IMG/VR virus record: IMGVR_UViG_3300031853_000001
Location: 116,933-180,932 of that record
Direction: 5' to 3' (one strand)
DNA: 64,000 nt
Source of the DNA: a virus
Lineage: Duplodnaviria; Caudoviricetes
Shown: positions 1-12,184 of the stretch, one piece after another
Numbering within the stretch: position 1 is the stretch's first letter
Layout of the letters: each line of letters begins with the position of its first letter
Notes under the pieces: generated by a model
What the model was told of the DNA's origin: nothing
Databases searched by the model: none
Seen by the model: the letters and a program-made list of their open reading frames with translations, nothing else
Made by a program: the position numbers and the translations under genes

Positions 1-2
1 AA

Positions 3-386
3 ATTTTTGAGCAGGCTTTTGGCGATAAGGAAGTTATTCTATTCGGTGAGGGCTATGGTCGTAAAATTCAGAAGGGCGGTGGCAAGTATATTGCCGATGG
101 CGTTGATTTTATTCTATTTGACGTTCTAATTGGTGAGAATTATCAAGAACGTGAATGGGTTGAAAGCACCGCCAAGATGTTTGGTATTAAGGTCGTCCCA
201 ATTGTGGGTGGCGGTTCGCTTGAAGACGCTGTAAATTATGTTAAGAAGCACCCTAATTCGATAATTGCGGAAGATGTACGAGAAATGGAAGGTATTGTAT
301 GTAGACCCGCTGTTGAGCTACGTGACCGTCGTGGTAATCGTATTATTGTAAAAATTAAGTGGGAAGATATAAAGGAGCTTATTTAA
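3..386 (+). CDS. ATP-dependent RNA ligase (Rnl2-like nucleotidyltransferase), 5'-truncated by window edge
   Basis: Frame open from base 3: ...ILFGEGYG...FILFDV...EGIVCRP...IVKIK, matching nucleotidyltransferase motifs III, IIIa, IV and V. Confidence 0.75.
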   Translation: MFEQAFGDKEVILFGEGYGRKIQKGGGKYIADGVDFILFDVLIGENYQEREWVESTAKMFGIKVVPIVGGGSLEDAVNYVKKHPNSIIAEDVREMEGIVCRPAVELRDRRGNRIIVKIKWEDIKELI

Positions 387-387
387 T

Positions 388-612
388 ATGAATGGATTTT
401 ATAAAGTAAAAGTTAATAATTATGGAGAAAAACCCGAAGAATGGTCTGGTGTTGTTGTGGGTAACGATGAAGGTGACCTTATGAACAAGGTTATGAAATA
501 TTATGGTCACGATAATGTAGAACAAATAAGCTTTTGGTTTGGAGAATTTTATGATAATGATGTCGTAGAATTTGACGATTTTAAGGATTGTCCATTATTT
601 GACTTTCACTAA
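388..612 (+). CDS. hypothetical protein
   Basis: 74-aa ORF abutting the ligase, RBS AAGGAG. Confidence 0.6.
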   Translation: MNGFYKVKVNNYGEKPEEWSGVVVGNDEGDLMNKVMKYYGHDNVEQISFWFGEFYDNDVVEFDDFKDCPLFDFH

Positions 613-627
613 AAATTTTGATATAAT
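599..627 (+). promoter_or_regulatory. sigmaA-type promoter upstream of the tRNA island
   Basis: TTGACT-N17-TATAAT. Confidence 0.75.
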
Positions 628-658
628 ATTTATACAAGGTGAGGGAACTCACCAATAA

Positions 659-731
659 TGCGGAGTGGCCAAGTAGTTAAGGCAATTGGCTCATACCCAA
701 TAGATCAAGAGTGCAAATCTCTTCTCCGCAA
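659..731 (+). tRNA. tRNA-Met/Ile2 (CAT)
   Basis: Acceptor TGCGGAG/CTCCGCA; anticodon arm ATTGG-CTCATAC-CCAAT; T arm AAGAG-TGCAAAT-CTCTT. Confidence 0.85.
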
Positions 732-974
732 CTCAGCGCAAAAGGAGAGCAAGCTGTTACTCCGAGTGAACTTATCGGCGCTATATAAATAGGAAAAACC
801 AATTAAATACAGTATTTTAAATGAAGTAATAACTGCCATAGAAGTCATGACCTATGATAGAAGACACTTCATTTAAAGCAACCGGTTGATTTGCGCAATT
901 AAGTCGTTAGAAGCGACTAGAGGGAGAGACCCTGACTAATAAGCAAGTCCATTCTATGAAATGGTAATGTCGAA

Positions 975-1044
975 AACCAATTAGTGTAAAGTAGCATACC
1001 TTACCAATAATAAGGAGAATCAGCGTAGCGAACTGAATTGGCGT
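975..1044 (+). pseudogene. degenerate tRNA-like element (anticodon position AAT)
   Basis: CCAAT/ATTGG partial acceptor, GTGT..GCAT D stem, CCTTA-CCAATAA-TAAGG arm, TCAG..CTGA T stem; no CCA. Confidence 0.45.
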
Positions 1045-1708
1045 ACTGGAATTTGTTGTCCAGAGTAGGCATAAATCGAGCAGCAATGCGGTAATACCCG
1101 TGCACAGGTAGCTAAATTACCCTGGCTCACCAATTATTTTAGAAGATAAGACTTGAGCTTATCTCTGGCTATGAAGCGAGTGCCGTGCCGCAGATGCGGT
1201 GCTTAGTGGAGCCTATGTGGGTTTAGCGTGTCAACCACAATGCGGATAGGTATTAACCGAAAGAAAACACGCTTTAATGGCGCTTTATCCCAAGCCTTTT
1301 CGCGGCGGCGCTATAAGTACCAAAAGGTATTATTTAATACTGAGCGTGAAACTAAGAGGGAACTGAAGGCTGTGCCAAGGTGAAAGGCTAACAGTCCGAG
1401 TGATGACCGTTGAAGCCATTCGGTGCATAGTGGTGCCGTTAAAGCGATGGATGCATACATCGTCCACTTCATTTAATGACTTGATGCTTATCAAGCTAGA
1501 ACTATCGAGGACGTGTGCGGTGGGAATGTTTGAGATTAGATGTAGATAGTTTAAGTATAGACTTGCGGTGCAAGCCTAATCAACTGGCGTTCCGCGGCCA
1601 GAATACTTTGCGGGCTTTATTGATTCGGGAGGAAGTGTCCGTAGATGAACTTCTCGGAGTAATCGCCATAATCGAATCAGCCGTGCGGCTGGCATAATGC
1701 CGCAATAT

Positions 1709-1828
1709 GGCACCGTAGTGCAAAGGTAAGCACGCCGGCCTTTGTGAGATAGGGTAAAGTGCAGTTCAACTCTGCCGTCTCGCACCACAAGCCGGTGATG
1801 CTGGGTTCAAGTCCCGCCGGTGCTTCCA
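1709..1828 (+). tRNA. tRNA-Glu(TTC) interrupted by a 44-nt tRNA-like insert (1744-1787)
   Basis: GGCACCG/CGGTGCT acceptor + T-CCA; CCGGC/GCCGG anticodon stem; removing 1744-1787 gives loop CT-TTC-AA. Confidence 0.85.
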
Positions 1829-1831
1829 AGC

Positions 1832-1918
1832 AAAGAAAAGAGAAGCATAAATCTGATCAATTTATGAGATAATGATGCCCTAACATCAAGTCTTTTCTTT
1901 AATAAATATTATTAGGGT
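1832..1918 (+). promoter_or_regulatory. three-way junction with RBS-pairing loop (RAGATH-18-like) before HNH gene
   Basis: AAAGAAAAGA/TCTTTTCTTT stem; CATAAAT/ATTTATG; TGATG-CCCTAA-CATCA loop complementary to TTAGGG at the RBS. Confidence 0.55.
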
Positions 1919-1924
1919 GATATT

Positions 1925-2566
1925 ATGAGTAGAAAATTAAGCCAACAACAATTTGAAGAAAGAGTATATAAGACATTTGGAGATAAATATTCTGTAGTAA
2001 GTGAATATTTAGGTCAAAGAAAACCTATAACTTTACATTGTAATATACACAATATTGATTTTACAGCTACTGCTGAATGTTTCATGAGACAAGCTAATGA
2101 CACTCGCTCAAGTTGTCCAGAATGTACTGCAGAAAAACGAAGACAAGAAAATAATTCTGTAAAATGTGAATGTGCTTATTGTCATAAAATTTTTTATTTG
2201 TCTCAATCTAAAGCTAATAATTCTAAAAGTGGATTACATTTTTGTTGTAGAGAACATAAAGATTTAGCTCAAAGAATAGATAGCGGTGAACAATTCGATA
2301 TAATGCGCCCGCCTCATTATAATGCAATAAAAAATGATACAGGAACAATTGGGACATATCGTATTTTAGCTTTTAGAAATTATCCCCATAAGTGCGCTGT
2401 TTGTAATTGGGACGAAGATGAAGATATATTACAAGTTCATCATATAGATGAAAATAGACAAAATAATTCTTTAACCAATTTAATTATTTTATGTCCTAAT
2501 TGTCACGCAAAAATAACTTATGGGAAATATAAATTAATTGATCGAAAACAAATTATATTAAAATAA
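1925..2566 (+). CDS. HNH endonuclease
   Basis: CAVC...VHHIDENRQNN...LCPNCH. Confidence 0.85.
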   Translation: MSRKLSQQQFEERVYKTFGDKYSVVSEYLGQRKPITLHCNIHNIDFTATAECFMRQANDTRSSCPECTAEKRRQENNSVKCECAYCHKIFYLSQSKANNSKSGLHFCCREHKDLAQRIDSGEQFDIMRPPHYNAIKNDTGTIGTYRILAFRNYPHKCAVCNWDEDEDILQVHHIDENRQNNSLTNLIILCPNCHAKITYGKYKLIDRKQIILK

Positions 2567-2579
2567 AATTAAATAGGAG

Positions 2580-2885
2580 TTGTTGTATATGGCAATCCAC
2601 GATAGAGCTTATACTCGTACAAAAAGTTGGACTAAGGCACTTCGTAAATACCACATTGATAGAGATATTTCCGCAGGTAAATGGTGGCCTATGTACAATA
2701 ATCTCCATCAATATGCTGATAATAAAATTCATTGTTCCTGTCCAATGTGTAGTGCTAAAACCAACAACAAAAAGCGCAATGGGCCTCGTGGATGGGAACC
2801 TTCAAAAAATTGGTCTATTTCAGATCAAAAGAAAATTAATAGTATGGAAAGTCAAGTTGAGGAATTAAATGATAACTTGGAATAA
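2580..2885 (+). CDS. hypothetical protein (HCSCPMC motif)
   Basis: ORF with RBS AGGAG; start may be ATG 2589. Confidence 0.6.
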   Translation: MLYMAIHDRAYTRTKSWTKALRKYHIDRDISAGKWWPMYNNLHQYADNKIHCSCPMCSAKTNNKKRNGPRGWEPSKNWSISDQKKINSMESQVEELNDNLE

Positions 2886-3063
2886 TTTTAAATGTGATTT
2901 TCCGTATCATCGTATAGATAATTTTGGCGATTATAGTGAAATGTGGTGCGGACGATTAGAAAAATATATTTCTAATTGTAATGATTGCCCATTTAACCAA
3001 AAAGAAAAAGAGATGCGTGAAGACCCCAATAATTATCAAAAATGGCTAAAATTACATAATTGA
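2869..3063 (+). CDS. hypothetical Cys-rich protein
   Basis: Overlaps upstream ORF; RBS GAGG. Confidence 0.55.
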   Translation: MITWNNFKCDFPYHRIDNFGDYSEMWCGRLEKYISNCNDCPFNQKEKEMREDPNNYQKWLKLHN

Positions 3064-3121
3064 CTTTTTCTAAAAATTATAGTATAATATATATAGTTAA
3101 GGGAAAGGAGATAAATTATTT

Positions 3122-3253
3122 ATGAATTATCTGGATGATTTTCTTGTTGGCCCGCAGAGCGATGAATATGATTGGTATTATGAAAATGAAATTCCTGATC
3201 CAGAATGGGACAGGAGATGTCGAGGATTGGATAAACTAATACTTGACAAGTAA
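3122..3253 (+). CDS. small acidic protein (43 aa)
   Basis: RBS AAAGGAG and own promoter at ~3060; below ORF-track cutoff. Confidence 0.5.
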   Translation: MNYLDDFLVGPQSDEYDWYYENEIPDPEWDRRCRGLDKLILDK

Positions 3254-3271
3254 TAAAAATTATGTTATAAT
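3243..3271 (+). promoter_or_regulatory. consensus sigmaA promoter
   Basis: TTGACA-N17-TATAAT with TG extended -10. Confidence 0.8.
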
Positions 3272-3301
3272 ATTTATAGAAACAAGGAAAGGATGATAAT
3301 T

Positions 3302-3394
3302 GTGCGCTTTACGACTCGCAAGTCTCGTACTGTGTTTTCTTCTTCTTGGAGTCGCCGCAAGCAGGCAGAGATGCTTGATGAGTGGCAGATTTAA
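3302..3394 (+). CDS. small basic peptide (30 aa, GTG start) MRFTTRKSRTVFSSSWSRRKQAEMLDEWQI
   Basis: RBS GAAAGGA behind a consensus promoter. Confidence 0.5.
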   Translation: MRFTTRKSRTVFSSSWSRRKQAEMLDEWQI

Positions 3395-3939
3395 ACGCCA
3401 GATTAGTTCAGCAAATTGCGGCCAATATTAATGGCGTTACCGCATTCCTTACTTATAGTTTGGAAGTACAAAGGTTTTGAGTAATTGAACCGGTTAAATC
3501 AATGCTTGGCGCCGGGTCCACCCTACTGGGCTCGTAAACAAATCGCGGCCAATGGTGAGAAGCGCCACCGCTATAAAGGAATGCCCCACGACGGGTTTCG
3601 TAAGTTATGTTGAAAGATATATACTAGCTTGGAATAAGCACACGCAAGAGTTGCTATAATGCGCAACAGAAAAATCCTTTATAATAGGTTAACCTACGGT
3701 CGGATGGGAGACGATAAACCCCTTTCAAGCAGTCTCTTTGGCGGTTGGACTTAAAATAAACCACCTAGGTCAGCAGGACTGATAACTATATATTATAGAA
3801 GCAATCTCTTTTATAATATATAGAAAACGCAGCCATAATCCTGTCGTTGCGGCGAACAACGATAAAAATCGCTAGTAGCCCAGATACTTACTTAAAGGGT
3901 TTTCGCCGCGTTAATCTTGGTATCGGATTGCGGTTGTAT

Positions 3940-4074
3940 CCACGCGTGGTGCAAATGGCGAGACACAGCGGACTTACGTAGGCCCAGTGGCTTGTTGGAG
4001 AGCAACACTCCTTCCTACGACCAAAATCCGCGACGCAAGATACATTGCTGGTTCAAATCCAGTCGCGTGGACCA
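3940..4074 (+). tRNA. tRNA-Leu(TAA) interrupted by a 47-nt tRNA-like insert (3977-4023)
   Basis: CCACGCG/CGCGTGG-A-CCA; GCGGA/TCCGC stem; long variable region; removing the insert gives CT-TAA-AA. Confidence 0.85.
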
Positions 4075-4077
4075 TAT

Positions 4078-4154
4078 GAGTTTGTAACCGAATTGGCATA
4101 GGTACTTGGCTCAAACCCAAGGTTTTGTGGGTTCGACTCCCACCAAACTCACCA
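4078..4154 (+). tRNA. tRNA-Leu(CAA)
   Basis: GAGTTTG/CAAACTC-A-CCA; CTTGG-CTCAAAC-CCAAG; GTGGG-TTCGACT-CCCAC. Confidence 0.9.
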
Positions 4155-4222
4155 AAATTTATATTTCGAGTGCGAATTATAATAATTTGAATTCGATGTT
4201 ATTACTTATCTAATGTAAGGAG

Positions 4223-4993
4223 GTGGTTAATATGCCACTAAAATATAAATTAGAAGAAGTATTAACAGAAAATTCTCCTGTTACTAGAAAAGTTTTAAAA
4301 GATTATTTAGCAAAATATAATGTTTTAGAATATAAATGTGCAATATGCGATAACAGAGGAGAATGGAATGGAGTTTCTTTAACATTACAAATAGACCATA
4401 TTAATGGTATAAGAGATGATAATAGAAAAGAAAATCTTCGTTGGCTATGCCCGAATTGTCATTCTCAAACTGATACTTTTACTGGGAAAAATAAAACTAA
4501 AAAAGAAGTTGTTAATTTTACAGTAGAAGAAGCTATTAAAGCATTACAACAAACTGAAAATGTAAATCAAGCAACCAAATTAATCGGCTGTGCGCAAGGT
4601 GGAGCAAATTGGATTAGAGTAAATGATATTAAAAAAAAGTATGGAATTATTCAATCTGGGGATTTAAAGAAAGAAGAAAAACAAAAGTTTAAAGAAAATC
4701 ATATTAATGCGAAACCAATTAACTCTATTAAATTATGTAAAAAATGCGGCCGTCCGTTATCGACAAAAGATGCTGAATACTGTCAAACTTGTATACACGA
4801 ATTTCAACGAAAATGTGAATGGCCTTCTCGCGAAGAACTTAAAAAATTAATTCGCTCTACACCTTTTTTACAAATAGGTAAAAAATATAATGTAAGCGAT
4901 AATGCTGTAAGAAAATGGTGCTTAAATTATGGTTTGCCATCTAAAAAGATGGAAATAAAAGCAATTTCAGATGAAGATTGGAATAATATTTGA
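4223..4993 (+). CDS. HNH endonuclease
   Basis: CAIC...LQIDHING...NLRWLCPNCHSQT. Confidence 0.9.
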   Translation: MVNMPLKYKLEEVLTENSPVTRKVLKDYLAKYNVLEYKCAICDNRGEWNGVSLTLQIDHINGIRDDNRKENLRWLCPNCHSQTDTFTGKNKTKKEVVNFTVEEAIKALQQTENVNQATKLIGCAQGGANWIRVNDIKKKYGIIQSGDLKKEEKQKFKENHINAKPINSIKLCKKCGRPLSTKDAEYCQTCIHEFQRKCEWPSREELKKLIRSTPFLQIGKKYNVSDNAVRKWCLNYGLPSKKMEIKAISDEDWNNI

Positions 4994-5044
4994 CTTTCTT
5001 TTAAAATTATAGTATAATAATTATAGTAAAGAGAAAGGATTTAT

Positions 5045-5257
5045 ATGAAAGCAAAGTGTAAATGCAGTTGTATTTGGGACTATTCTTGTAATGATATTAA
5101 AGTTGAACCTGACGGTCACGATGTTGTAGTTACTTTATATTGCCCTAATTGTGGGCATCAGCTTTTTGCTTATAGCCCTAATGACCTAATAGAAAAAGTA
5201 TCTCCTTCTTATGTTGATACTCATTGTTTTTCAAAATACACTTGGAATAATACTTGA
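5045..5257 (+). CDS. hypothetical Zn-ribbon protein
   Basis: CxC..CPNCG; promoter and RBS upstream. Confidence 0.6.
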   Translation: MKAKCKCSCIWDYSCNDIKVEPDGHDVVVTLYCPNCGHQLFAYSPNDLIEKVSPSYVDTHCFSKYTWNNT

Positions 5258-5294
5258 CTTTTAGCAGAAAATCTGCTATAATAAATATGTAAGA

Positions 5295-5365
5295 ACGACG
5301 GTAGCAGCAGTTTTAATAATAAATATTTTTAATGTAAAAATCCTTATTAGCAAAAATTCCGTCGT
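5295..5365 (+). ncRNA. stem-CAGCA cassette 1 (skipping-rope-like)
   Basis: ACGACGG/CCGTCGT closing stem, GCAGCAG, internal AT-rich hairpin. Confidence 0.5.
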
Positions 5366-5379
5366 GCTGATTGAAATTA

Positions 5380-5445
5380 AGGCGGACACAGCAAATAACT
5401 ATTTAAGCAATAATCTTTTAAATTATGTAGCTAAAATAACCGCCT
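5380..5445 (+). ncRNA. stem-ACAGCAA cassette 2 carrying a Lys(TTT) anticodon arm
   Basis: AGGCGG/CCGCCT; ACAGCAA; ATAAT-CTTTTAA-ATTAT. Confidence 0.6.
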
Positions 5446-5454
5446 AGAATTTAT

Positions 5455-5532
5455 GTGCCCGTGGCGCAACTTGGCAGACGCGCTACACTTAGGATGTAGA
5501 TTTTCAGAGTTCAAATCTCTGCGGGCGCACCA
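5455..5532 (+). tRNA. tRNA-Leu(TAG)
   Basis: GTGCCCG/CGGGCGC-A-CCA; CTACA-CTTAGGA-TGTAG; CAGAG-TTCAAAT-CTCTG. Confidence 0.9.
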
Positions 5533-5740
5533 GTCACTCCTCGCTAATGCGACAAGTCGCGTTAACATTTGTTTGTTAGCTACTGTTGGAAAACGCGACT
5601 TTAAAATACAAAGAAGCAACAGTAAATAGCTCAAACCGTATGTTGAGACTATCGTAACTATCACATTCTAGGAGTCCTGACTCGTTATTGGACTTAATAC
5701 TCAACGGAGTTGGCGCCCAAACAAATCCTAGAATGTATAT

Positions 5741-5793
5741 GGTATCAAGTGAAGAGCCTTCTCGTGGCGATACTGATTTCGACTAATCTTCAC
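5741..5793 (+). ncRNA. minimal HDV-like (theta-type) self-cleaving ribozyme
   Basis: P1 GGTATC/GATACT with G1.U wobble; P2 GTGAAGA/TCTTCAC; P3 GCC/GGC; L3 TTCTCGT; J4/2 CTAA. Confidence 0.75.
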
Positions 5794-6015
5794 AAAATAT
5801 TAAAGCGTGCTTTTCCTTGCTGTACACTTGTTGAAAAGCCAAATGTTCCCGTATGAGAATACGCAGGTTATACCTGTATATTGAAATCCCATAAGACGTC
5901 ACAAAGGAATGGATAGAAATTACAATGGGCCATTCAGAAAGTAGAACACTTTAATATTTGACTTTTTCTGAAAATTCTGGTATAATAATTACAGAAACAA
6001 GGAAAGGACAAAATA

Positions 6016-6171
6016 ATGAAGATACTTGTTGTAAATAAAGATGAGAAAATACAATTAATTCATCTCCTAAAACAAGAAATACGCAAACCTGGTTGTCCTT
6101 ATGAATTACTTACTATTTTAGAAAAACTTAGTCCTGGAGACTATGAATATCTTTTTACAACTATGAAATAA
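6016..6171 (+). CDS. small hypothetical protein (51 aa)
   Basis: Promoter at 5958-5986, RBS GAAAGGA. Confidence 0.55.
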   Translation: MKILVVNKDEKIQLIHLLKQEIRKPGCPYELLTILEKLSPGDYEYLFTTMK

Positions 6172-6194
6172 AAGAAAGGAAGTAGATACTCCAT

Positions 6195-6748
6195 TTAATA
6201 AAATGGTTGAACCAAGTGAAGAAGAGTTAACCACTCTGCTTGGGCTATCTAAATAACAGCCATACGATTTAGCGGGATACTACTAAATCGCGGCCACGAA
6301 ATCAGTAATGATTAGTGATAAGGAGAAACTCTTAATGTTAAGGATAGGCGCTTGGTTATTCGCTAACAAAAACTTGGCTCCTTGCGGCGTCGTAATAGAA
6401 AGCAGATTGAGCAGATTTGCCGAACCCAGAAAAGACTTTAAGGTGGCAGTTAAAGGGACTCTGGGAAAGCCATAAGACGTTTGGTGTCGTTGAAACCTAG
6501 AAATAGGATATAAGCAAGGTTCACAGATAAAGTAGCCTAAAACGACAATGATTCTAATAAGTAATTTAATTAGAATAATGTGCTGAATGGTTTAGGTGAA
6601 ATTTGGGAGTAATCAGTCTCCCCGTTGCTAGCCAAAAGGCAGGATGAAGAAGTTAAAGGGTCGCTACCTTTGGCTCAGCCTTCATCTTCAACGTGGTTGA
6701 ATATGTTAGAAGGATAATACAAGTACGGCGAAGGTCGCAACGGTTTTA
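6195..6748 (+). ncRNA. large structured RNA, ROOL-like
   Basis: ~550 nt ORF-free and helix-rich; the 3' part (AAAAGGCAGGATGAAG..GGGTCGCTACC..CTCAGCCTTCATC..GTGGTTGAATA..GGCGAAGGTC) resembles ROOL 3' domains as recalled; tRNA-island context. Confidence 0.5.
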
Positions 6749-6768
6749 TTAAATGGGGTATTTGCCCT

Positions 6769-6854
6769 AGACTTTAAGGTAGCATTGGAGTAATTAACCA
6801 ATGAGACAAAGATGCTCCTACATCGGCTTAAAGTTTAAAATATAATCATAGGAG
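6769..6854 (+). promoter_or_regulatory. RAGATH-18-like three-way junction/pseudoknot masking the HNH RBS
   Basis: ACTTTAAG/CTTAAAGT; CATTGG/CCAATG; GAGACAAA; GATG-CTCCTA-CATC loop complementary to RBS TAGGAG. Confidence 0.6.
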
Positions 6855-6863
6855 TGATTTAAT

Positions 6864-7424
6864 ATGCCAAGGAAAATTGATTTAACAGGAAAAATTTTTG
6901 GAATCATACAGGTAGATTCGCCAGCACCAAGTCAATCTGGTAAAACGTATTGGAATTGTCATTGTACAATTTGTAATACTAAAAAAGTAATTCAAGGTTG
7001 CGCCTTAAAAAATGGTTCTATTAAAACTTGCGGTTGTGGTTGTTCTTTTCATAAACAAAATACTTCAAAAATTTGTGAAATTTGTGGAAAAGAATTTATT
7101 CCAATAAAATTTGGCGGTGCTAGAAAATATTGTTATGAATGTTCTCCGCAAGAAGGCTCAGAAACAGATAAGCGCACAGTTATAAGACGAGCTTTAAAAA
7201 AGATGCTAGTTGATTATAAAGGTGGAAAATGTGAACGATGTGGATATAATAAATGTTTACGCGCATTAGAATTTCATCATTTAAATCCGTCTGAAAAAGA
7301 TTTTGGAATTTCTGGATGTATAACTAAAAATGTAGAAGAATTAAAAAATGAAGTTAATAAATGTATTTTAGTTTGTTCTAATTGTCACGCGGAAATTCAT
7401 GAAGAATTAGACGAGGCCCGTTAG
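6864..7424 (+). CDS. HNH endonuclease
   Basis: CERCGY..LEFHH...CILVCSNCHAEIH; stop codon lies inside tRNA-Asn. Confidence 0.85.
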   Translation: MPRKIDLTGKIFGIIQVDSPAPSQSGKTYWNCHCTICNTKKVIQGCALKNGSIKTCGCGCSFHKQNTSKICEICGKEFIPIKFGGARKYCYECSPQEGSETDKRTVIRRALKKMLVDYKGGKCERCGYNKCLRALEFHHLNPSEKDFGISGCITKNVEELKNEVNKCILVCSNCHAEIHEELDEAR

Positions 7425-7491
7425 TCCAGTTGGCAGAACGATAGACTGTTAATCTATGTCAGCGCTGGTTCAAGTCCAGCACGGGCCGCCA
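7415..7491 (+). tRNA. tRNA-Asn(GTT)
   Basis: GGCCCGT/ACGGGCC-G-CCA; ATAGA-CTGTTAA-TCTAT. Confidence 0.92.
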
Positions 7492-7771
7492 TAGTCACAT
7501 AGAGGACTTATTCTCTATGCTTGCTCAACGTCCCACTTATGTGAACGCGCGAAGTCACATAAGAGAGTCAACCCTTCCGAAGTACGAAGGAACCCCTAAA
7601 ATGGTCTGTGGGGATAAGCGGTGTCATGAACCGCCTAATGTAGCTGGCAAAGAGCATAGGTTCGTTAGGCTCCTAAGAAAAGCCTATCACCATCACGATA
7701 GCAAATAAGTGAATAAACGGATACGCGGTTAGCTGACCTTAAAGCTATTCTAATCTAGAGGAGAATAAAAT

Positions 7772-8311
7772 ATGAGTGACGTAAGACTAAAAATTTTACC
7801 TCCATGGACAGTAACAATTCGTAAGTTTGAGGCACTATTTGACGGTGACCCACAAATTGCTTGTAATTGTAATTTCTCAGGTTCTAATCCTTCTATTGTA
7901 CTAGCTTGTAATAATGGTGATAAGGTTGCTGCTCTACAGCAGATTCTTCCTTCTGAAGTTGGCTTTGGCAATATTAAGCTAAAGGTCGCGGTTGATGGTG
8001 TTCCTTCTAATCGTACTTTCAAGAGTAAGGTTGAACTATTTGACACGGCTTTCAAGGGGAATCCAGCATACGCTTATTCTGCATGTCCTGCTGAGGAAGG
8101 TTATCAGTGGATTGGGACTACTTATGTTGTATTTAATAACTGTGTAGTGCAGTTCGCGGCGGACAATCTAAATGATTGCCATGGTATTATTAGCACCCTA
8201 TATGAAACTATCGCAAGCGAACTTCTAACTGGCCCCGCTACTGATGGTGTATTTTATAATACAAATGTAGAACGTGCTGGGCTTGGTCTTTCGCTAGGAG
8301 AATGGCCATAA
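7772..8311 (+). CDS. hypothetical protein
   Basis: 179 aa, RBS GAGGAG, phage-like codon usage. Confidence 0.75.
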   Translation: MSDVRLKILPPWTVTIRKFEALFDGDPQIACNCNFSGSNPSIVLACNNGDKVAALQQILPSEVGFGNIKLKVAVDGVPSNRTFKSKVELFDTAFKGNPAYAYSACPAEEGYQWIGTTYVVFNNCVVQFAADNLNDCHGIISTLYETIASELLTGPATDGVFYNTNVERAGLGLSLGEWP

Positions 8312-8532
8312 AAGATAAGTTCACTGGGCTCTTCTAAAGTCCAGTACCAAAGCCGAATGTCACATAAAGTTAACGACGGTGCGGTATGAAAAGACCACGC
8401 TGTAGTGGCACGGGCAGAGCTAATCCGGCAAGGAAAGCGGCGGTTAAAGTGAAATCGCGACGCGGAAAGAGAAAGAATAACAACCAGTGATGGGTCGAAA
8501 GACGTCTTATCAGTTTTCTCGGTCACTTTTAT

Positions 8533-8606
8533 AGTCCGTTAGTTTAACAGTAAAATATAACCCTGTCACGGTTAAGTTACGAGGGCAGCACTCGTACGGA
8601 CTGCCA
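8533..8606 (+). tRNA. tRNA-Asp(GTC) with atypical T loop GGCAGCA
   Basis: AGTCCGT/ACGGACT-G-CCA; TAACC-CTGTCAC-GGTTA. Confidence 0.85.
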
Positions 8607-8724
8607 TAGACTCAAACAGCAATATTTTACTTGCATGTGGGGCCGGAAGTATTGGTTTAACTCCAGTTCTCTCCACCACATGGAGAGATAGTGTAACGAT
8701 AGCACGCCGTATAGTATGAGTCTA
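8607..8724 (+). ncRNA. stem-ACAGCAA cassette 3 containing a circularly permuted tRNA (GTG/His-like anticodon)
   Basis: TAGACTCA/TGAGTCTA; the 3' half (T arm, TCTCTCC-A-CCA) precedes the 5' half (GGAGAGA-TA-D arm). Confidence 0.7.
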
Positions 8725-8730
8725 GTATAT

Positions 8731-9283
8731 CGGGTTGTAGCGCAGTTTGGTAGCGCGCCTCGCTTGGGAAAAGCGATTTGTGCTTAATTATTATGTTAGA
8801 CATTACTCAACAAAAAGGAACGATTACAGAATTACGATGTATTTTAGATTTAACTAATTTGGGAATACGATGTTTAGTTCCTGTAGATGAAAGTTCTAAA
8901 TATGATGTAGTAGCAGATTTAAATGGTACTTTTATTAGAATTCAATGTAAAACAGCTTGTTGGGCTAAAGATACCGTTCAAGAAAAAGTAGCCTTTGAAA
9001 TAGATACTTGTCGAAGTACAACAAATACTAAAACTACTACTCATTATAAGTATTCTGCTAATGAAATTGATTATTTTTATACATGGTTTGAAGGACAAGG
9101 TTACTTAGTCTCCATTAAAGAAGCAAAAGGTTTAACTTTTAGATGGCGATATGAATATCCTTCTACCAATCAAAAACAAGGTATTCATATCGCAGAATTA
9201 TATAAGACTGAGGAGGTTTTAAAAGCACTCTAAAATTTTCCTGGACGAGGAGGCCGCAGGTTCAAATCCTGCCTGCCCGACCA
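8731..9283 (+). tRNA. tRNA-Pro(TGG) split by a 476-nt endonuclease-bearing insert (8767-9242)
   Basis: 5' half CGGGTTG..CCTCG-CTTG; 3' half GGA-CGAGG..GCAGG-TTCAAAT-CCTGC-CTGCCCG-A-CCA. Confidence 0.85.
8778..9233 (+). CDS. PD-(D/E)XK homing endonuclease (I-Ssp6803I-like) inside tRNA-Pro; likely start ATG 8793
   Basis: KG.ITE...KYDVVAD...IRIQCKT motif. Confidence 0.8.
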   Translation: MCLIIMLDITQQKGTITELRCILDLTNLGIRCLVPVDESSKYDVVADLNGTFIRIQCKTACWAKDTVQEKVAFEIDTCRSTTNTKTTTHYKYSANEIDYFYTWFEGQGYLVSIKEAKGLTFRWRYEYPSTNQKQGIHIAELYKTEEVLKAL

Positions 9284-9394
9284 TAATCAACTGGGTTTGA
9301 AGGTTATCCCATTTGAAAAACCTTCCCCTTTCTTTCTTGACTTTTTCTAAAAATTTTGATATAATAAATATATCAAAGGAAAGGAAATAAAAAG

Positions 9395-9622
9395 ATGGAT
9401 AAGAAAGAACTTTCTACTAATGCGGCAAAAGCAGAATTTGTAAAGTCTATTCATAATTGGCTTATGCGAACTTTAGAGCAAAACAATAAATCTGAATATA
9501 AAGATTGTTTTACTGTTGAAGGTTCTAGTATTATGTGCCAACTGCCGCAAGACTACTTTAATTCATGTAGTATTCCAGCGAACACTAAGATTGAAATGAA
9601 GTTTATTTCTAAGAAATCATAA
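9395..9622 (+). CDS. hypothetical protein
   Basis: Promoter at 9337-9365, RBS. Confidence 0.65.
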   Translation: MDKKELSTNAAKAEFVKSIHNWLMRTLEQNNKSEYKDCFTVEGSSIMCQLPQDYFNSCSIPANTKIEMKFISKKS

Positions 9623-9626
9623 CTAA

Positions 9627-9718
9627 TAAGCCTTTACTGCAATTACTTAAATGGTTAAATTATTTTGCTTGAATACAAAATGAGAGAAGGTTCGAGCCCT
9701 TCACAATTAAAAGGCTTA
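9627..9718 (+). ncRNA. stem-ACTGCAA cassette 4 with an acceptor-less tRNA body
   Basis: TAAGCCTTT/AAAGGCTTA; D-loop-like AAATGGTTAAA; ATTTTG-CTTGAATA-CAAAAT; GAAGG-TTCGAGC-CCTTC. Confidence 0.6.
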
Positions 9719-9734
9719 GCAAAGTTAGAAACTA

Positions 9735-9800
9735 AAGGCACAAGCAGCAACAAGACGTTTTAATAATTTGATAGTGGATTAAATTTATTGAGTGTGCCTT
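9735..9800 (+). ncRNA. stem-GCAGCAA cassette 5 with a GTG anticodon-like arm
   Basis: AAGGCACA/TGTGCCTT; TTTGA-TAGTGGA-TTAAA. Confidence 0.55.
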
Positions 9801-9809
9801 GATTATTAA

Positions 9810-9886
9810 GTCGGTTTAGCTTAGCTGGTTAAAGCACTCGCCTTGTAAGCGAGAGACCTTCGGTCCGAATCCGAAAACCGGCTCCA
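9810..9886 (+). tRNA. tRNA-Thr(TGT)
   Basis: GTCGGTT/AACCGGC-T-CCA; CTCGC-CTTGTAA-GCGAG. Confidence 0.9.
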
Positions 9887-9907
9887 TCTAAAAGAAGGAG
9901 TATTAAA

Positions 9908-10354
9908 ATGGGACTTTTTAATCGGTCTAAAAAAGAGCCTACAAAACAATATATTCCACCTGAGCAGCCTAAAAAATGCGAGCATAAATTTCAAGATTTT
10001 CCTTGGTATATAGAAGGAGAAGAAAATGAAGGTAATGTATATGGTTGTAACTCTTGGTATCATCTAGTAATTAAAGAACCTTATGTTTGTATTTATTGTG
10101 GCGAAAGATATGATAAAATATTGTGGGAAATAAGACGATATGGCTCTCATAAAGAAGCAATGCAGGCTCTAGATGATGTTAATGAAAAATTTAAAGACCG
10201 AATAAGACATCGCGCAGAAATTGAAGATATGATAAATGATATGCAATTAGTCGATCCTCAATATTTACAATATTATCATATGCTTCAGGGAACAAAAGAC
10301 CCATCTACTTCTCGATTATATGAGCAAGAAATTAAACCAAAATTAAAAACTTAA
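9908..10354 (+). CDS. hypothetical protein
   Basis: RBS AAGGAG, 148 aa. Confidence 0.7.
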   Translation: MGLFNRSKKEPTKQYIPPEQPKKCEHKFQDFPWYIEGEENEGNVYGCNSWYHLVIKEPYVCIYCGERYDKILWEIRRYGSHKEAMQALDDVNEKFKDRIRHRAEIEDMINDMQLVDPQYLQYYHMLQGTKDPSTSRLYEQEIKPKLKT

Positions 10355-10357
10355 TTT

Positions 10358-10476
10358 TATGCGGTCACAGCAATTTTAGATTTAATCTAAGTGTCATCGG
10401 TTCGATTCCGATTATTCCAGCCATTTAATTTGGAGTGTAGCTCAATTGGTAGAGCATTAGAATTATAAACCGCATA
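10358..10476 (+). ncRNA. stem-ACAGCAA cassette 6 containing a circularly permuted tRNA (TTT or TAT anticodon)
   Basis: TATGCGGT/ACCGCATA; 3' half 10381-10423 (ATCGG-TTCGATT-CCGAT, TATTCCA-G-CCA), then 5' half 10431-10461 (TGGAGTG-TA-GCTC-AATTGGTA-GAGC-A-TTAGA). Confidence 0.75.
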
Positions 10477-10489
10477 GTACGATATTTAA

Positions 10490-10554
10490 GACGCTTACAG
10501 CAATTTAATACAGTCGCACACATAAATAATTACATGACTAAGTAATAGAGCGTC
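10490..10554 (+). ncRNA. stem-ACAGCAA cassette 7
   Basis: GACGCT/AGCGTC; TACAGCAA. Confidence 0.55.
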
Positions 10555-10577
10555 GCGTTTTTATTTGAGGAATTAAA

Positions 10578-11012
10578 ATGAAGTTATATACATCTTATTT
10601 CGCGCAATTAAGGAATTTTCCACCAAATCTTGTTGGGCTTTCAACTGCAATTTGGAATCCCAAATGGTTGAATCCTGGCCGCGATAAAAATGGAGCAATT
10701 TGGTTAGATATTCCGCCACTTAAACCTGGGAAGGAGTGCGATGGATTATGTAATGGGAAGTGTGCTCCAAAACATCCTAATGATTGTGATTTTCTTAAAG
10801 TATATCGTAAGCAACTTGATAGGATAGATTTTAAGATGTTTATTGAACATTTAGAAACTCTTGCTAAAACTATTCAACTTGGCGAAAATTTAGACGAAGT
10901 TAATTTTGCCTTTCTTGTTTATGAAAAGTATGATAATCCTTGTAGTGAACGCGCAATAATTCAACAATGGTTTAAGGATAATGGAATGGAGATTGAAGAA
11001 TGGAAGAAATAA
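10578..11012 (+). CDS. DUF488-like protein
   Basis: MKLYTSYFA...YEK....CSER..I..W pattern. Confidence 0.55.
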   Translation: MKLYTSYFAQLRNFPPNLVGLSTAIWNPKWLNPGRDKNGAIWLDIPPLKPGKECDGLCNGKCAPKHPNDCDFLKVYRKQLDRIDFKMFIEHLETLAKTIQLGENLDEVNFAFLVYEKYDNPCSERAIIQQWFKDNGMEIEEWKK

Positions 11013-11332
11013 ATAATTATGATTGGCTTCATTATATTCCACAGGGTTGGAAAGAAATTGGCCGACAAATGATTCAAGAGTGCGAAGCAATTGACCCAAC
11101 TTACTGCATTTGCGATTTAAAAGAAAAATGGGGAACCCTTGATGTAATCGCAAATTGTGATATGACTTATTGGCGTGAAATAGATATGATTGAAAATAAG
11201 TATGAAAAATTAAGTGCAAGAACTTGTTGTTCCTGCGGCCAACCCGCTACAAAATATTCTACTGGATGGATTCTTCCTTGGTGTGATAAATGCGGCGATA
11301 TGGATGAAAAGTTTTATAAGAGGTTTGAATAA
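11000..11332 (+). CDS. hypothetical phage protein
   Basis: KEKWG.L...TC..CG...GWI...C pattern. Confidence 0.65.
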   Translation: MEEINNYDWLHYIPQGWKEIGRQMIQECEAIDPTYCICDLKEKWGTLDVIANCDMTYWREIDMIENKYEKLSARTCCSCGQPATKYSTGWILPWCDKCGDMDEKFYKRFE

Positions 11333-11428
11333 GGCGGGTTAAGCCTAATTTGGTAAGGCAGGAGATTGCTAATCTCTGAGTAATCGGTGTATACCGGTGT
11401 TTCGGTTCAAGTCCGAAACCCGTCGCCA
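11333..11428 (+). tRNA. tRNA-Ser(GCT)
   Basis: GGCGGGT/ACCCGTC-G-CCA; GGAGA-TTGCTAA-TCTCT; long variable arm. Confidence 0.9.
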
Positions 11429-11430
11429 AT

Positions 11431-11588
11431 TGTGGACTGTTGGCTTAGAAGCAGCCATTCAGCTAAGGAGTTCTTAATTTCTCTATTAGTGCGAAATGTA
11501 TTGTGGGCTACATTTGTTATAATGCCCCACGAGTATGATGTGCAAATAGGTAATAGGAATATAAGATTTGGCGTAATAGCACACCACA
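11431..11588 (+). ncRNA. mimic of 23S rRNA H43-H44 (L11-binding / GTPase-associated centre)
   Basis: TGTTGGCTTAGAAGCAGCCAT (11438-11458) and GCGTAATAGC (11571-11580), closed by TGTGG/CCACA. Confidence 0.7.
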
Positions 11589-11719
11589 AATATTGAGCTG
11601 GCCAGAGTAGCGTGCAGAAAGCTCATTAAACACGGGGTTACTACATAGACTTGCCCACGCCTCTTAACAATGCGTACCTTGGAGAGCGCGTGTTCCGCGA
11701 CGTTTAACTGCGGATTTAT

Positions 11720-11794
11720 GCGGGTGTAGTTCAACGGCTCGAATACTTGGCTTCCACCCAGGAGATGAGGTTTCGACTACCTCTACTCGCACCA
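11720..11794 (+). tRNA. tRNA-Gly(TCC)
   Basis: GCGGGTG/TACTCGC-A-CCA; CTTGG-CTTCCAC-CCAGG. Confidence 0.9.
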
Positions 11795-11797
11795 TAT

Positions 11798-11874
11798 AGG
11801 GAATTAGCGTAATGGTAGCGCCGCGGGCTTTGAACCCGTCTGTTGTAAAGGTTCGATTCCTTTATTCCCTGCCA
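11798..11874 (+). tRNA. tRNA-Gln(TTG)
   Basis: AGGGAAT/ATTCCCT-G-CCA; GCGGG-CTTTGAA-CCCGT. Confidence 0.9.
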
Positions 11875-11947
11875 ACCCAGATAGCATTAGGGTTTTCGGT
11901 GCGATAAACTTGCTATCGGTTTGCACCTGTTTTAAGGAGATTATATT

Positions 11948-12184
11948 ATGAAACGAGGAACAGATCATTCTTGGGAAGTGCGTAAATATTTAGGAGACAT
12001 AGCTTGGTATGCACATTGTAAATGTGGGTTTGAATATGCTTGCTCAAAAAGTAAAAGAAATAATGATGGGACTTGGTCCGTTGAGCAAGAAATAGATTGG
12101 CTTGCCCATTATTGCCCAAATTGTGGTGCTCGCAAGAAATGGTATAATCTTGAAATAATTAAAATAAATAAACATAAGTTCTAG
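11948..12184 (+). CDS. hypothetical Zn-ribbon protein
   Basis: CKCG..YCPNCGA; RBS AAGGAG. Confidence 0.65.
   Translation: MKRGTDHSWEVRKYLGDIAWYAHCKCGFEYACSKSKRNNDGTWSVEQEIDWLAHYCPNCGARKKWYNLEIIKINKHKF

Follow-up and report, generated by a model that had tools for sequence, protein, structure and literature searches.

A probable 44-nt tRNA-shaped intron in the anticodon of a phage tRNA-Glu(UUC) gene and its relatives in other tRNAs

Described tRNA introns and RNA-repair systems

The closest described introns are those of the Lak phages, i.e., Prevotella megaphages of more than 540 kb with an alternative code (PMC6784885, PMC13037316). Devoto et al. (2019, Nat Microbiol, PMC6784885) describe highly conserved, "enigmatic" introns in the Lak tRNAs, and state of one of them that it "itself may encode a tRNA". 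According to a 2026 survey of jumbo phages, such tRNA introns "could encode another tRNA" (PMC13037316). The inserts described here resemble those of Lak phages in several respects: they are short, lie in the anticodon loop, are near-identical between variants, are present or absent among relatives and are miscalled by tRNA finders. The differences are that (i) the phage considered here is of 181 kb and has a ROOL RNA gene; (ii) the insert goes down to 44 nt and ends with ACCA; (iii) the Lak papers give no boundary rule, minihelix form, covariation or mechanism, and all of these but a demonstrated mechanism are given below. No mechanism for phage tRNA introns was found in the literature. The new elements here are an insert pared down to a minimal 44 nt, its occurrence in another phage lineage, the boundary rule, the covariation support and the complete ligation toolkit. 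A boundary rule with comparative support is now available for introns reported as "enigmatic" since 2019.

The tRNA introns of archaea and eukaryotes (EndA/Sen with RtcB/Trl1) are similar to the present inserts: they are short, not self-splicing and located in the anticodon loop, and in both cases proteins would perform the excision before a ligation. Nevertheless, they are located at 37/38 and not at 34/35 or 35/36, and the phage genome contains neither RtcB nor an archaeal splicing endonuclease (EndA family, PF01974). Inspection by eye of the splice sites did not reveal the bulge-helix-bulge motif, i.e., two 3-nt bulges and a 4-bp helix. Group I introns are found in the same class of target site, the anticodon loops of bacterial and phage tRNAs, e.g., tRNA-Leu(UAA). 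The group I catalytic core (P3-P9) comprises about 200 nt or more. An insert of 44 nt cannot hold such a ribozyme core and is therefore not a group I intron. There is no Rfam intron match in the window (no Intron_gpI at the gathering score).

Three other systems can be compared. The minimal model substrates of RNase P consist of an acceptor stem, a T stem-loop and a 3' RCCA. The insert has a similar helix and tail, together with a hairpin that may correspond to the T arm, and its 5' end is located where RNase P would be expected to cut such a model. MALAT1/mascRNA and the mitochondrial tRNA punctuation release neighbouring RNAs without any re-joining of the flanks; on the contrary, the flanks are here the two halves of another tRNA and need ligation. 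The repair of the anticodon loop by T4 (Pnkp and Rnl1) is similar in that Rnl1 and a kinase/phosphoesterase are encoded and the break to be sealed is in the anticodon loop. However, the T4 break is a damage caused by a host anticodon nuclease, whereas the present one would be made on purpose, as part of the normal expression of the gene. Moreover, the healing enzyme of T4 has the Pnkp architecture and the present one is a kinase-HD fusion.

Self-splicing introns are the only kind known to us from the tRNA genes of bacteria and of their viruses. A 44-nt insert that is not self-splicing, that is under selection and that interrupts the only gene for the commonest codon would imply enzyme-based splicing in the bacterial world. 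If this is true, the RNA-repair enzymes of phages gain a routine role in gene expression.

The interrupted tRNA-Glu(UUC) gene

The virus record comprises 180,932 bp (34% GC). The window, i.e., the whole stretch of 64,000 nt that was analysed, is its final 64 kb. The record ends (genome 1-185 and 180748-180932) are repeats of each other with one mismatch (overlap of about 185 nt). The assembly is therefore essentially complete, and the record, which is labelled linear, is probably that of a complete genome, either circular or with terminal redundancy. The region 1-12000 of the window is a tRNA array on the plus strand, for which no match to an isolated phage was obtained by megablast. A protein search with the DNA ligase gave as best isolates Bacillus-group phages (Bacillus, Brevibacillus, Alicyclobacillus), which are distant (27-29% identity). 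The array also contains a ROOL RNA (6188-6756; Rfam, 315 bits) and a drum RNA (1166-1277; Rfam, 70.8 bits). In an Rfam scan of five relatives, ROOL is again found in L003, L008 and L010, and drum in L003 and L013.

The array is headed by the gene of an Rnl2-like RNA ligase of 216 aa (genome 116668-117318; PF09414, 66.6 bits), whose 3' part is at 1..386 of the window (plus strand). The position of this gene is conserved in the relatives, and it is through this gene that the latter (L-numbered contigs) were retrieved. The gene order Rnl2-like ligase, tRNA-Met, tRNA-Glu is also kept in them.

The segment 1709-1825 matches the Rfam tRNA model RF00005 over model positions 1-71 with 44.8 bits (cut-off 29 bits), an insert being placed in the anticodon loop. 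The 5' exon (1709..1743, plus strand) contains the 5' strand of the acceptor, the D arm, the 5' strand of the anticodon stem and C32, U33, U34 and U35. A 44-nt tRNA-minihelix intron (1744..1787, plus strand) follows, between the anticodon positions 35 and 36. The 3' exon (1788..1828, plus strand) starts with C36, A37 and A38 and the 3' strand of the anticodon stem; its remainder consists of a 4-nt variable loop, the T arm, the 3' strand of the acceptor and an encoded U73-CCA.

An uninterrupted tRNA-Glu(UUC) is found at the matching array position of L003, L007, L013 and L008. It has the loop CTTTCAA and resembles the window gene in its D arm, its T loop and its variable loop of 4 nt. Moreover, the exon 1709..1743 aligns with the uninterrupted tRNA-Glu of L003 and L008. 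The initial annotation had claimed that excision restores CT-TTC-AA, and this is the loop read in these orthologues. Only the excision of exactly 1744-1787 restores CTTTCAA, which places the intron between positions 35 and 36; a register displaced by one base leads to another anticodon. Other splice registers were considered, i.e., Val CAC (as given by ARAGORN), Val UAC and Gln UUG. They were ruled out, the orthologues reading CTTTCAA, and they are also countered by the covariation of the first insert base with its partner in the nested-tRNA family (see below). It had also been anticipated that tRNA finders would miss or miscall the gene. Indeed, ARAGORN misses it in its default mode and calls Val(CAC) with the option -i. 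Default finders miss or miscall interrupted genes, and phage tRNA repertoires, suppressor tRNAs included, are therefore under-counted.

No further Glu tRNA gene was found in the phage genome by ARAGORN. GAA is the commonest phage codon among those counted (59 per 1000). The phage has a single gene each for Glu(UUC) and Leu(UAA), the readers of its commonest Glu and Leu codons, and both genes are interrupted. The insert is very probably a real intron within a functional tRNA-Glu gene.

The insert reads GTGAGAT-AGGGTAAAGT-GCAG-TTCAACT-CTGC-C-GTCTCGC-A-CCA over 1744-1787, exactly as in the initial annotation. The 7-bp acceptor stem described there is found again: GTGAGAT (1744..1750, plus strand), whose first base is the 5' junction, pairs with GTCTCGC (1777..1783, plus strand), two of the pairs being G.U. 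This helix (P1) was deduced from the sequence and by RNAfold, and is present in both the MFE and centroid folds. The discriminator-like A1784 and the CCA (1785-1787) come directly after the helix, as had been proposed; this segment (1784..1787, plus strand) is unpaired in both folds and its final A is the 3' splice junction. The folded sequence has thus the features of a minihelix, i.e., a helix of about 7 bp starting from +1 and a single-stranded 3' RCCA. The junction with the outer tRNA is an asymmetric loop (4 nt by 7 nt) between the anticodon stem and P1.

With RNAfold, the closing helix and the free 4-nt tail are obtained with an MFE of −15.8 kcal/mol (z = −3.0), a value equalled by 1 of 200 shuffles. 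Among 2 million shuffles of the insert, the fraction with a 7-bp terminal helix and a 4-nt tail is 9.4e-4. It is only 1.6e-5 when the tail must end with CCA. The T arm proposed at the outset must be considered in two parts. An inner hairpin stacked on P1 is secure. On the contrary, the register that gives a TTCAACT T loop (GCAG-TTCAACT-CTGC, 1761..1775, plus strand) is not that of the MFE: with GCAG/CTGC (7+4 bp and a 1-nt bulge) the energy is −10.8 kcal/mol, vs. −15.8 kcal/mol for an extended irregular stem. The rival register pairs 1753-1756 with 1773-1776. The T17C variant (L015, L098, L099) disrupts a pair in the competing register only and not in the T-arm register.

The interrupted tRNA-Glu is present in 9 contigs, with 0-1 changes within the 44-nt insert. 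Alignment of the 8 full copies gives 5 variable columns in total. Two are in the intron, i.e., T17C and the discriminator, which is A changed to G in the copy of L010. The 3 remaining columns are in the outer anticodon stem (28:42 C-G to U-A and 27:43 C-G to U.G). All of the modelled pairs (32/32) stay paired in every copy. The pairs thus persist, with a compensatory change at 28:42, despite the interruption, which leads to the conclusion that the outer tRNA fold is under selection. P1 of the Glu intron is invariant and therefore gives no covariation evidence of its own, either way.

It must be noticed that the Glu insert varies less than the anticodon stem around it. This is expected of a selected product, and would fit an insert that is never removed. 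The transcript would then be a chimeric RNA or a dead tRNA, the tRNA body would be a stable carrier, and the useful product would be the CCA-ended minihelix (e.g., a decoy for enzymes or toxins acting on tRNA 3' ends), or there would be none. Such a reading is very unlikely: the outer anticodon stem of tRNA-Glu keeps its pairing through a compensatory change, and the genes concerned include the sole ones for the commonest Glu and Leu codons. Further evidence on both sides comes from the other inserts.

Related inserts in other tRNAs

ARAGORN -i was run over 1.6 Mb, i.e., 91 sequences (90 related loci and the phage genome), and the output was then parsed manually. Among these 91 sequences, tRNA-shaped inserts are confined to the closest relatives. 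The insertion site is 34/35 or 35/36 in the six tRNAs concerned (Glu, Leu, Asn, Lys, Gln and Ile). The window contains a second interrupted gene, tRNA-Leu(UAA) (3940..4074, plus strand), whose intron (3977-4023) was located by ARAGORN -i and from the sequence; the Leu insert, also found in L008, L016 and L017, is of 47 nt (CGTAGG...CCTACG-A-CCA) and at 35/36. In the case of Asn(GUU) (L013 and L015), the insert is of 49-50 nt (GTCAGAT...ATCTGGC-A-CCA) and at 34/35. L011 and L012 contain both the Lys(UUU) insert (75 nt, G-CCA end, 35/36) and the Gln(UUG) insert (69 nt, cloverleaf-like, GCAA end, 34/35). The Ile(UAU) insert (L010, L016 and L017) is of 74-77 nt and at 34/35, in a tRNA body that is unconfirmed.

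The flanks of the Leu, Asn, Lys and Gln inserts align with uninterrupted tRNAs of the same type in the phage or in relatives. The flanks of the Ile type do not align with the Ile(UAU) and Thr(UGU) genes of the phage. The assignment to Ile(UAU) is thus based on the restored loop CTTATAA and on the first insert base, which covaries with its partner at position 72. In the ARAGORN output, the outer gene of the Ile type is wrongly given as Thr or Arg, the first base of the inner tRNA being drawn into the anticodon.

The boundaries follow a simple rule. The first base of the insert is the first base of its helix in every family, and an NCCA end is found in 5 of the 6 families. Excision at these boundaries restores a 7-nt loop of the orthologue type in six different tRNAs. 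It is thus the helix start and the 4-nt tail of the insert itself that the boundaries follow, and not a fixed position of the host tRNA, which argues for recognition of the insert and against a ruler set by the outer tRNA.

The insert of L010 (3401-3476) is a bona fide tRNA with the anticodon CUA (Rfam, 47.8 bits), also called by ARAGORN. Its first base and its A-CCA end coincide exactly with the two junctions. The expression "tRNA inside a tRNA", which the initial annotation had used for the Glu gene, is thus literal in relatives. This nested tRNA(CUA), of the amber-suppressor type, is located within L010:3366-3518, and a second one within L017:5290-5441, the outer loop being CTTATAA. In L016 (3074-3222) the inner element is degenerate (74 nt), with an "anticodon" loop of 6 or 8 nt. 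The inserts, of 44-77 nt, form a series from the minihelix of the window to the full nested tRNA. The stacks of helix and hairpin are of 10-14 bp and not of the canonical 12, which, like the T-loop register that differs from the MFE fold, is a point against the excision by RNase P considered below.

The helices covary in several families. P1 of the Asn insert is GTCAGAT/ATCTGGC or GTTGGAT/ATCCAGC (C3-G to U3-A and A4-U to G4-C). That of the Leu insert is CGTAGG/CCTACG or CGTGGG/CCCACG (A-U to G-C), the compensatory variant being in L017. The terminal pair of the nested tRNA is either G1-C72 or C1-G72. The Glu and Asn introns have GTNNGAT-AG...C-ACCA in common, with a G-C to C-G flip, though their host tRNAs and positions in the loop differ; the MAFFT alignment of these two introns is unreliable at the 5' end.

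Concerning an insert that would never be removed, the nested element of L010 and L017 is a functional-looking suppressor tRNA, which is in favour of a useful product. Nevertheless, the anticodon stems of the Asn family also differ in a compensatory manner by eye (TTCGG/CCGAA in L013 vs. GTCGG/CCGAC in L015), and the restoration of the 7-nt loop in six tRNAs is likewise difficult to reconcile with an RNA that stays unspliced.

Excision, re-joining and spread of the inserts

A model that can be tested directly follows from the anatomy of the insert: RNase P would make one cut, a second would fall after CCA, and a ligase of the phage would join the ends. On the basis of sequence analysis, the chances are judged about even that the tRNA-shaped intron is cut by RNase P on its 5' side and by an endonuclease after CCA, and that a phage ligase then seals the tRNA. 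In this model: (i) host RNase P would cut at 1743/1744, as at any tRNA 5' end; (ii) an endonuclease, the leading candidate being a host enzyme of the RNase Z/BN type, would cut straight after CCA (1787/1788); (iii) the tRNA body would hold the two halves together after cleavage; (iv) phage Rnl1 (or the Rnl2-like ligase) would join the halves, after repair of the ends by the kinase-HD enzyme where this is necessary. The anticodon loop of the product would then read CUUUCAA, as in a normal tRNA.

The classical minimal substrate of bacterial RNase P consists of the acceptor stem, the T arm and RCCA. The minihelix inserts have no D and anticodon arms, and keep an acceptor-like helix, a stacked hairpin and NCCA. 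This resemblance to the minimal substrate, with loss of the other arms, is the main reason why RNase P is favoured as the enzyme acting on the 5' side.

The 3' cut is the least secure step: we know of no bacterial enzyme with a demonstrated ability to cleave exactly behind CCA in front of another structured RNA, and the phage genome contains no RNase Z-like metallo-beta-lactamase. The 3' CCA is encoded by 23 of the 24 tRNA genes of the phage (genome 104942-128806), and the spacers between tRNAs of the array go down to 1-4 nt (e.g., 1 nt between Arg(UCU) and Ser(CGA)). Cutting tight against CCA must therefore be routine for this array. The phage genome has no CCA-adding enzyme and no reverse transcriptase. 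A phage-encoded cutter was considered and is unsupported, since the genome lacks the candidate nuclease families. Nor is there support for retro-insertion by a reverse transcriptase of the phage, which has no such gene.

The re-joining of tRNA halves requires ligases and a healing enzyme, and the phage supplies such a set: besides the Rnl2-like ligase, it encodes an Rnl1-family ligase (genome 66583-67725) and a kinase-HD (Pnk-HD) end-healing enzyme (genome 74889-75770), i.e., an AAA_33 kinase with an HD phosphoesterase. The Rnl1 of T4 seals 3'-OH/5'-P breaks in tRNA anticodon loops.

Some inserts depart from the CCA pattern. The GCAA end of the Gln family is against a pure RNase P/CCA model. 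Moreover, tRNA-Pro(UGG) (8731-9283) has a 476-nt insert in its anticodon loop (8767-9242), at a position compatible with that of the other inserts. It consists nearly entirely of an ORF (8793-9233) for a homing endonuclease of the PDDEXK_5 (I-Ssp6803I) type and leaves no room for a group I or other ribozyme core. It is closed by the helices GGAAAA/TTTTCC and GTGCTT/AAGCAC, and has a 1-nt tail, no CCA and no tRNA shape. The removal of some inserts in this lineage must therefore do without CCA as a signal. A similar ORF-bearing insert was noticed in a tRNA-Met (L013:2631-3160), its junction being read by eye. A 349-nt insert was also noticed in a tRNA-Leu(UAA) (L010:17364-17789), after the U34-type position; it is possibly a group I intron, though no Rfam intron family is above the cut-off for this insert.

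The absence of CCA in the Gln and tRNA-Pro inserts makes a serious rival of an endonuclease that reads the junction, followed by healing and sealing. A dedicated and so far unrecognised endoribonuclease, of the phage or of the host, would read the junction of stem, loop and closing helix; the ends would be a 2',3'-cyclic phosphate and a 5'-OH, as in T4 repair or in yeast tRNA splicing, and would be healed by the kinase-HD enzyme and sealed by Rnl1. The tRNA shape would then reflect ancestry from nested tRNAs and not the mechanism of cutting. The completeness of the heal-and-seal set and the closing helix, which starts at the 5' junction in all inserts, are in agreement with this, as is the ORF insert of tRNA-Pro (probably also that of the L013 tRNA-Met). 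However, no candidate nuclease was found, there being neither the EndA family nor a bulge-helix-bulge motif, and two features would be left unexplained: NCCA is retained in 5 of the 6 small families and the minihelices match the minimal substrate of RNase P. A dedicated endoribonuclease is considered rather unlikely.

More generally, it is proposed, tentatively and as a possibility somewhat short of probable, that large phages use a third, protein-only type of tRNA splicing, in which an intron made of a tRNA, or reduced to the minimal substrate of RNase P, would be excised by the usual end-processing nucleases of the cell and the phage ligase would join the halves. The 44-nt minihelix would be the remnant of a nested tRNA that decayed under selection for excision alone, and the element would move between tRNA genes.

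Several observations concern this movement. Uninterrupted tRNA-Glu orthologues exist, and close relatives vary in the presence or absence of the intron. An identical 47-nt Leu intron, together with its anticodon stem, is found in tRNA-Leu bodies that are otherwise divergent (L008 and L016 included), which looks like co-conversion. A free-standing HNH endonuclease gene (1925..2566, plus strand; PF01844) is directly downstream of the interrupted tRNA-Glu and may have a role in the spread of the intron. HNH genes, some of them fragmented, were noticed next to interrupted tRNAs at 1925-2566 and 4223-4993 in the window, and at L016:14645-15394, L010:12705-13235 and L013:15880-16161. Their location beside intron-bearing tRNAs in four genomes suggests that they are homing endonucleases targeting tRNA genes. 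The pattern of presence and absence, the Leu intron in divergent bodies and the HNH neighbours fit a mobile element, possibly helped by HNH. The Glu intron belongs to a lineage-specific and probably mobile family of tRNA-shaped introns, with full nested tRNAs at one extreme and minihelices at the other.

The same observations are in favour of an intron that would be mainly a selfish or protective DNA element, breaking the HNH site and spreading with the HNH gene (collaborative homing): HNH genes adjoin interrupted tRNAs in the phage, L016, L010 and L013, and P1 and tail are common to the Glu and Asn introns, which lie in different tRNAs and at different positions. On the contrary, in L005, L009, L097 and L098 the Glu intron has another tRNA and not an HNH gene directly downstream, and no HNH homologue was found in L008, L015 and L017. 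It is doubtful that this is the main function of the intron. It must be noticed that such a reading concerns the function and is compatible with splicing.

Two other particularities of the array can be mentioned. The segment 8533-8603 is a tRNA according to Rfam (45.8 bits) and is missed by ARAGORN. Inspection by eye points to an Asp(GUC)-like tRNA whose T loop (GGCAGCA) is non-canonical. The segment 10358-10476 looks like a circularly permuted tRNA, i.e., a 3' half ending with G-CCA, a 7-nt linker and a 5' half. It lies between the arms of an inverted repeat (TGCGGT at 10360-10365 and ACCGCA at 10469-10474) and is also flanked by direct repeats ACAGCAATTT, located at about 10367 and 10497. 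This candidate would likewise require a ligation in the anticodon loop.
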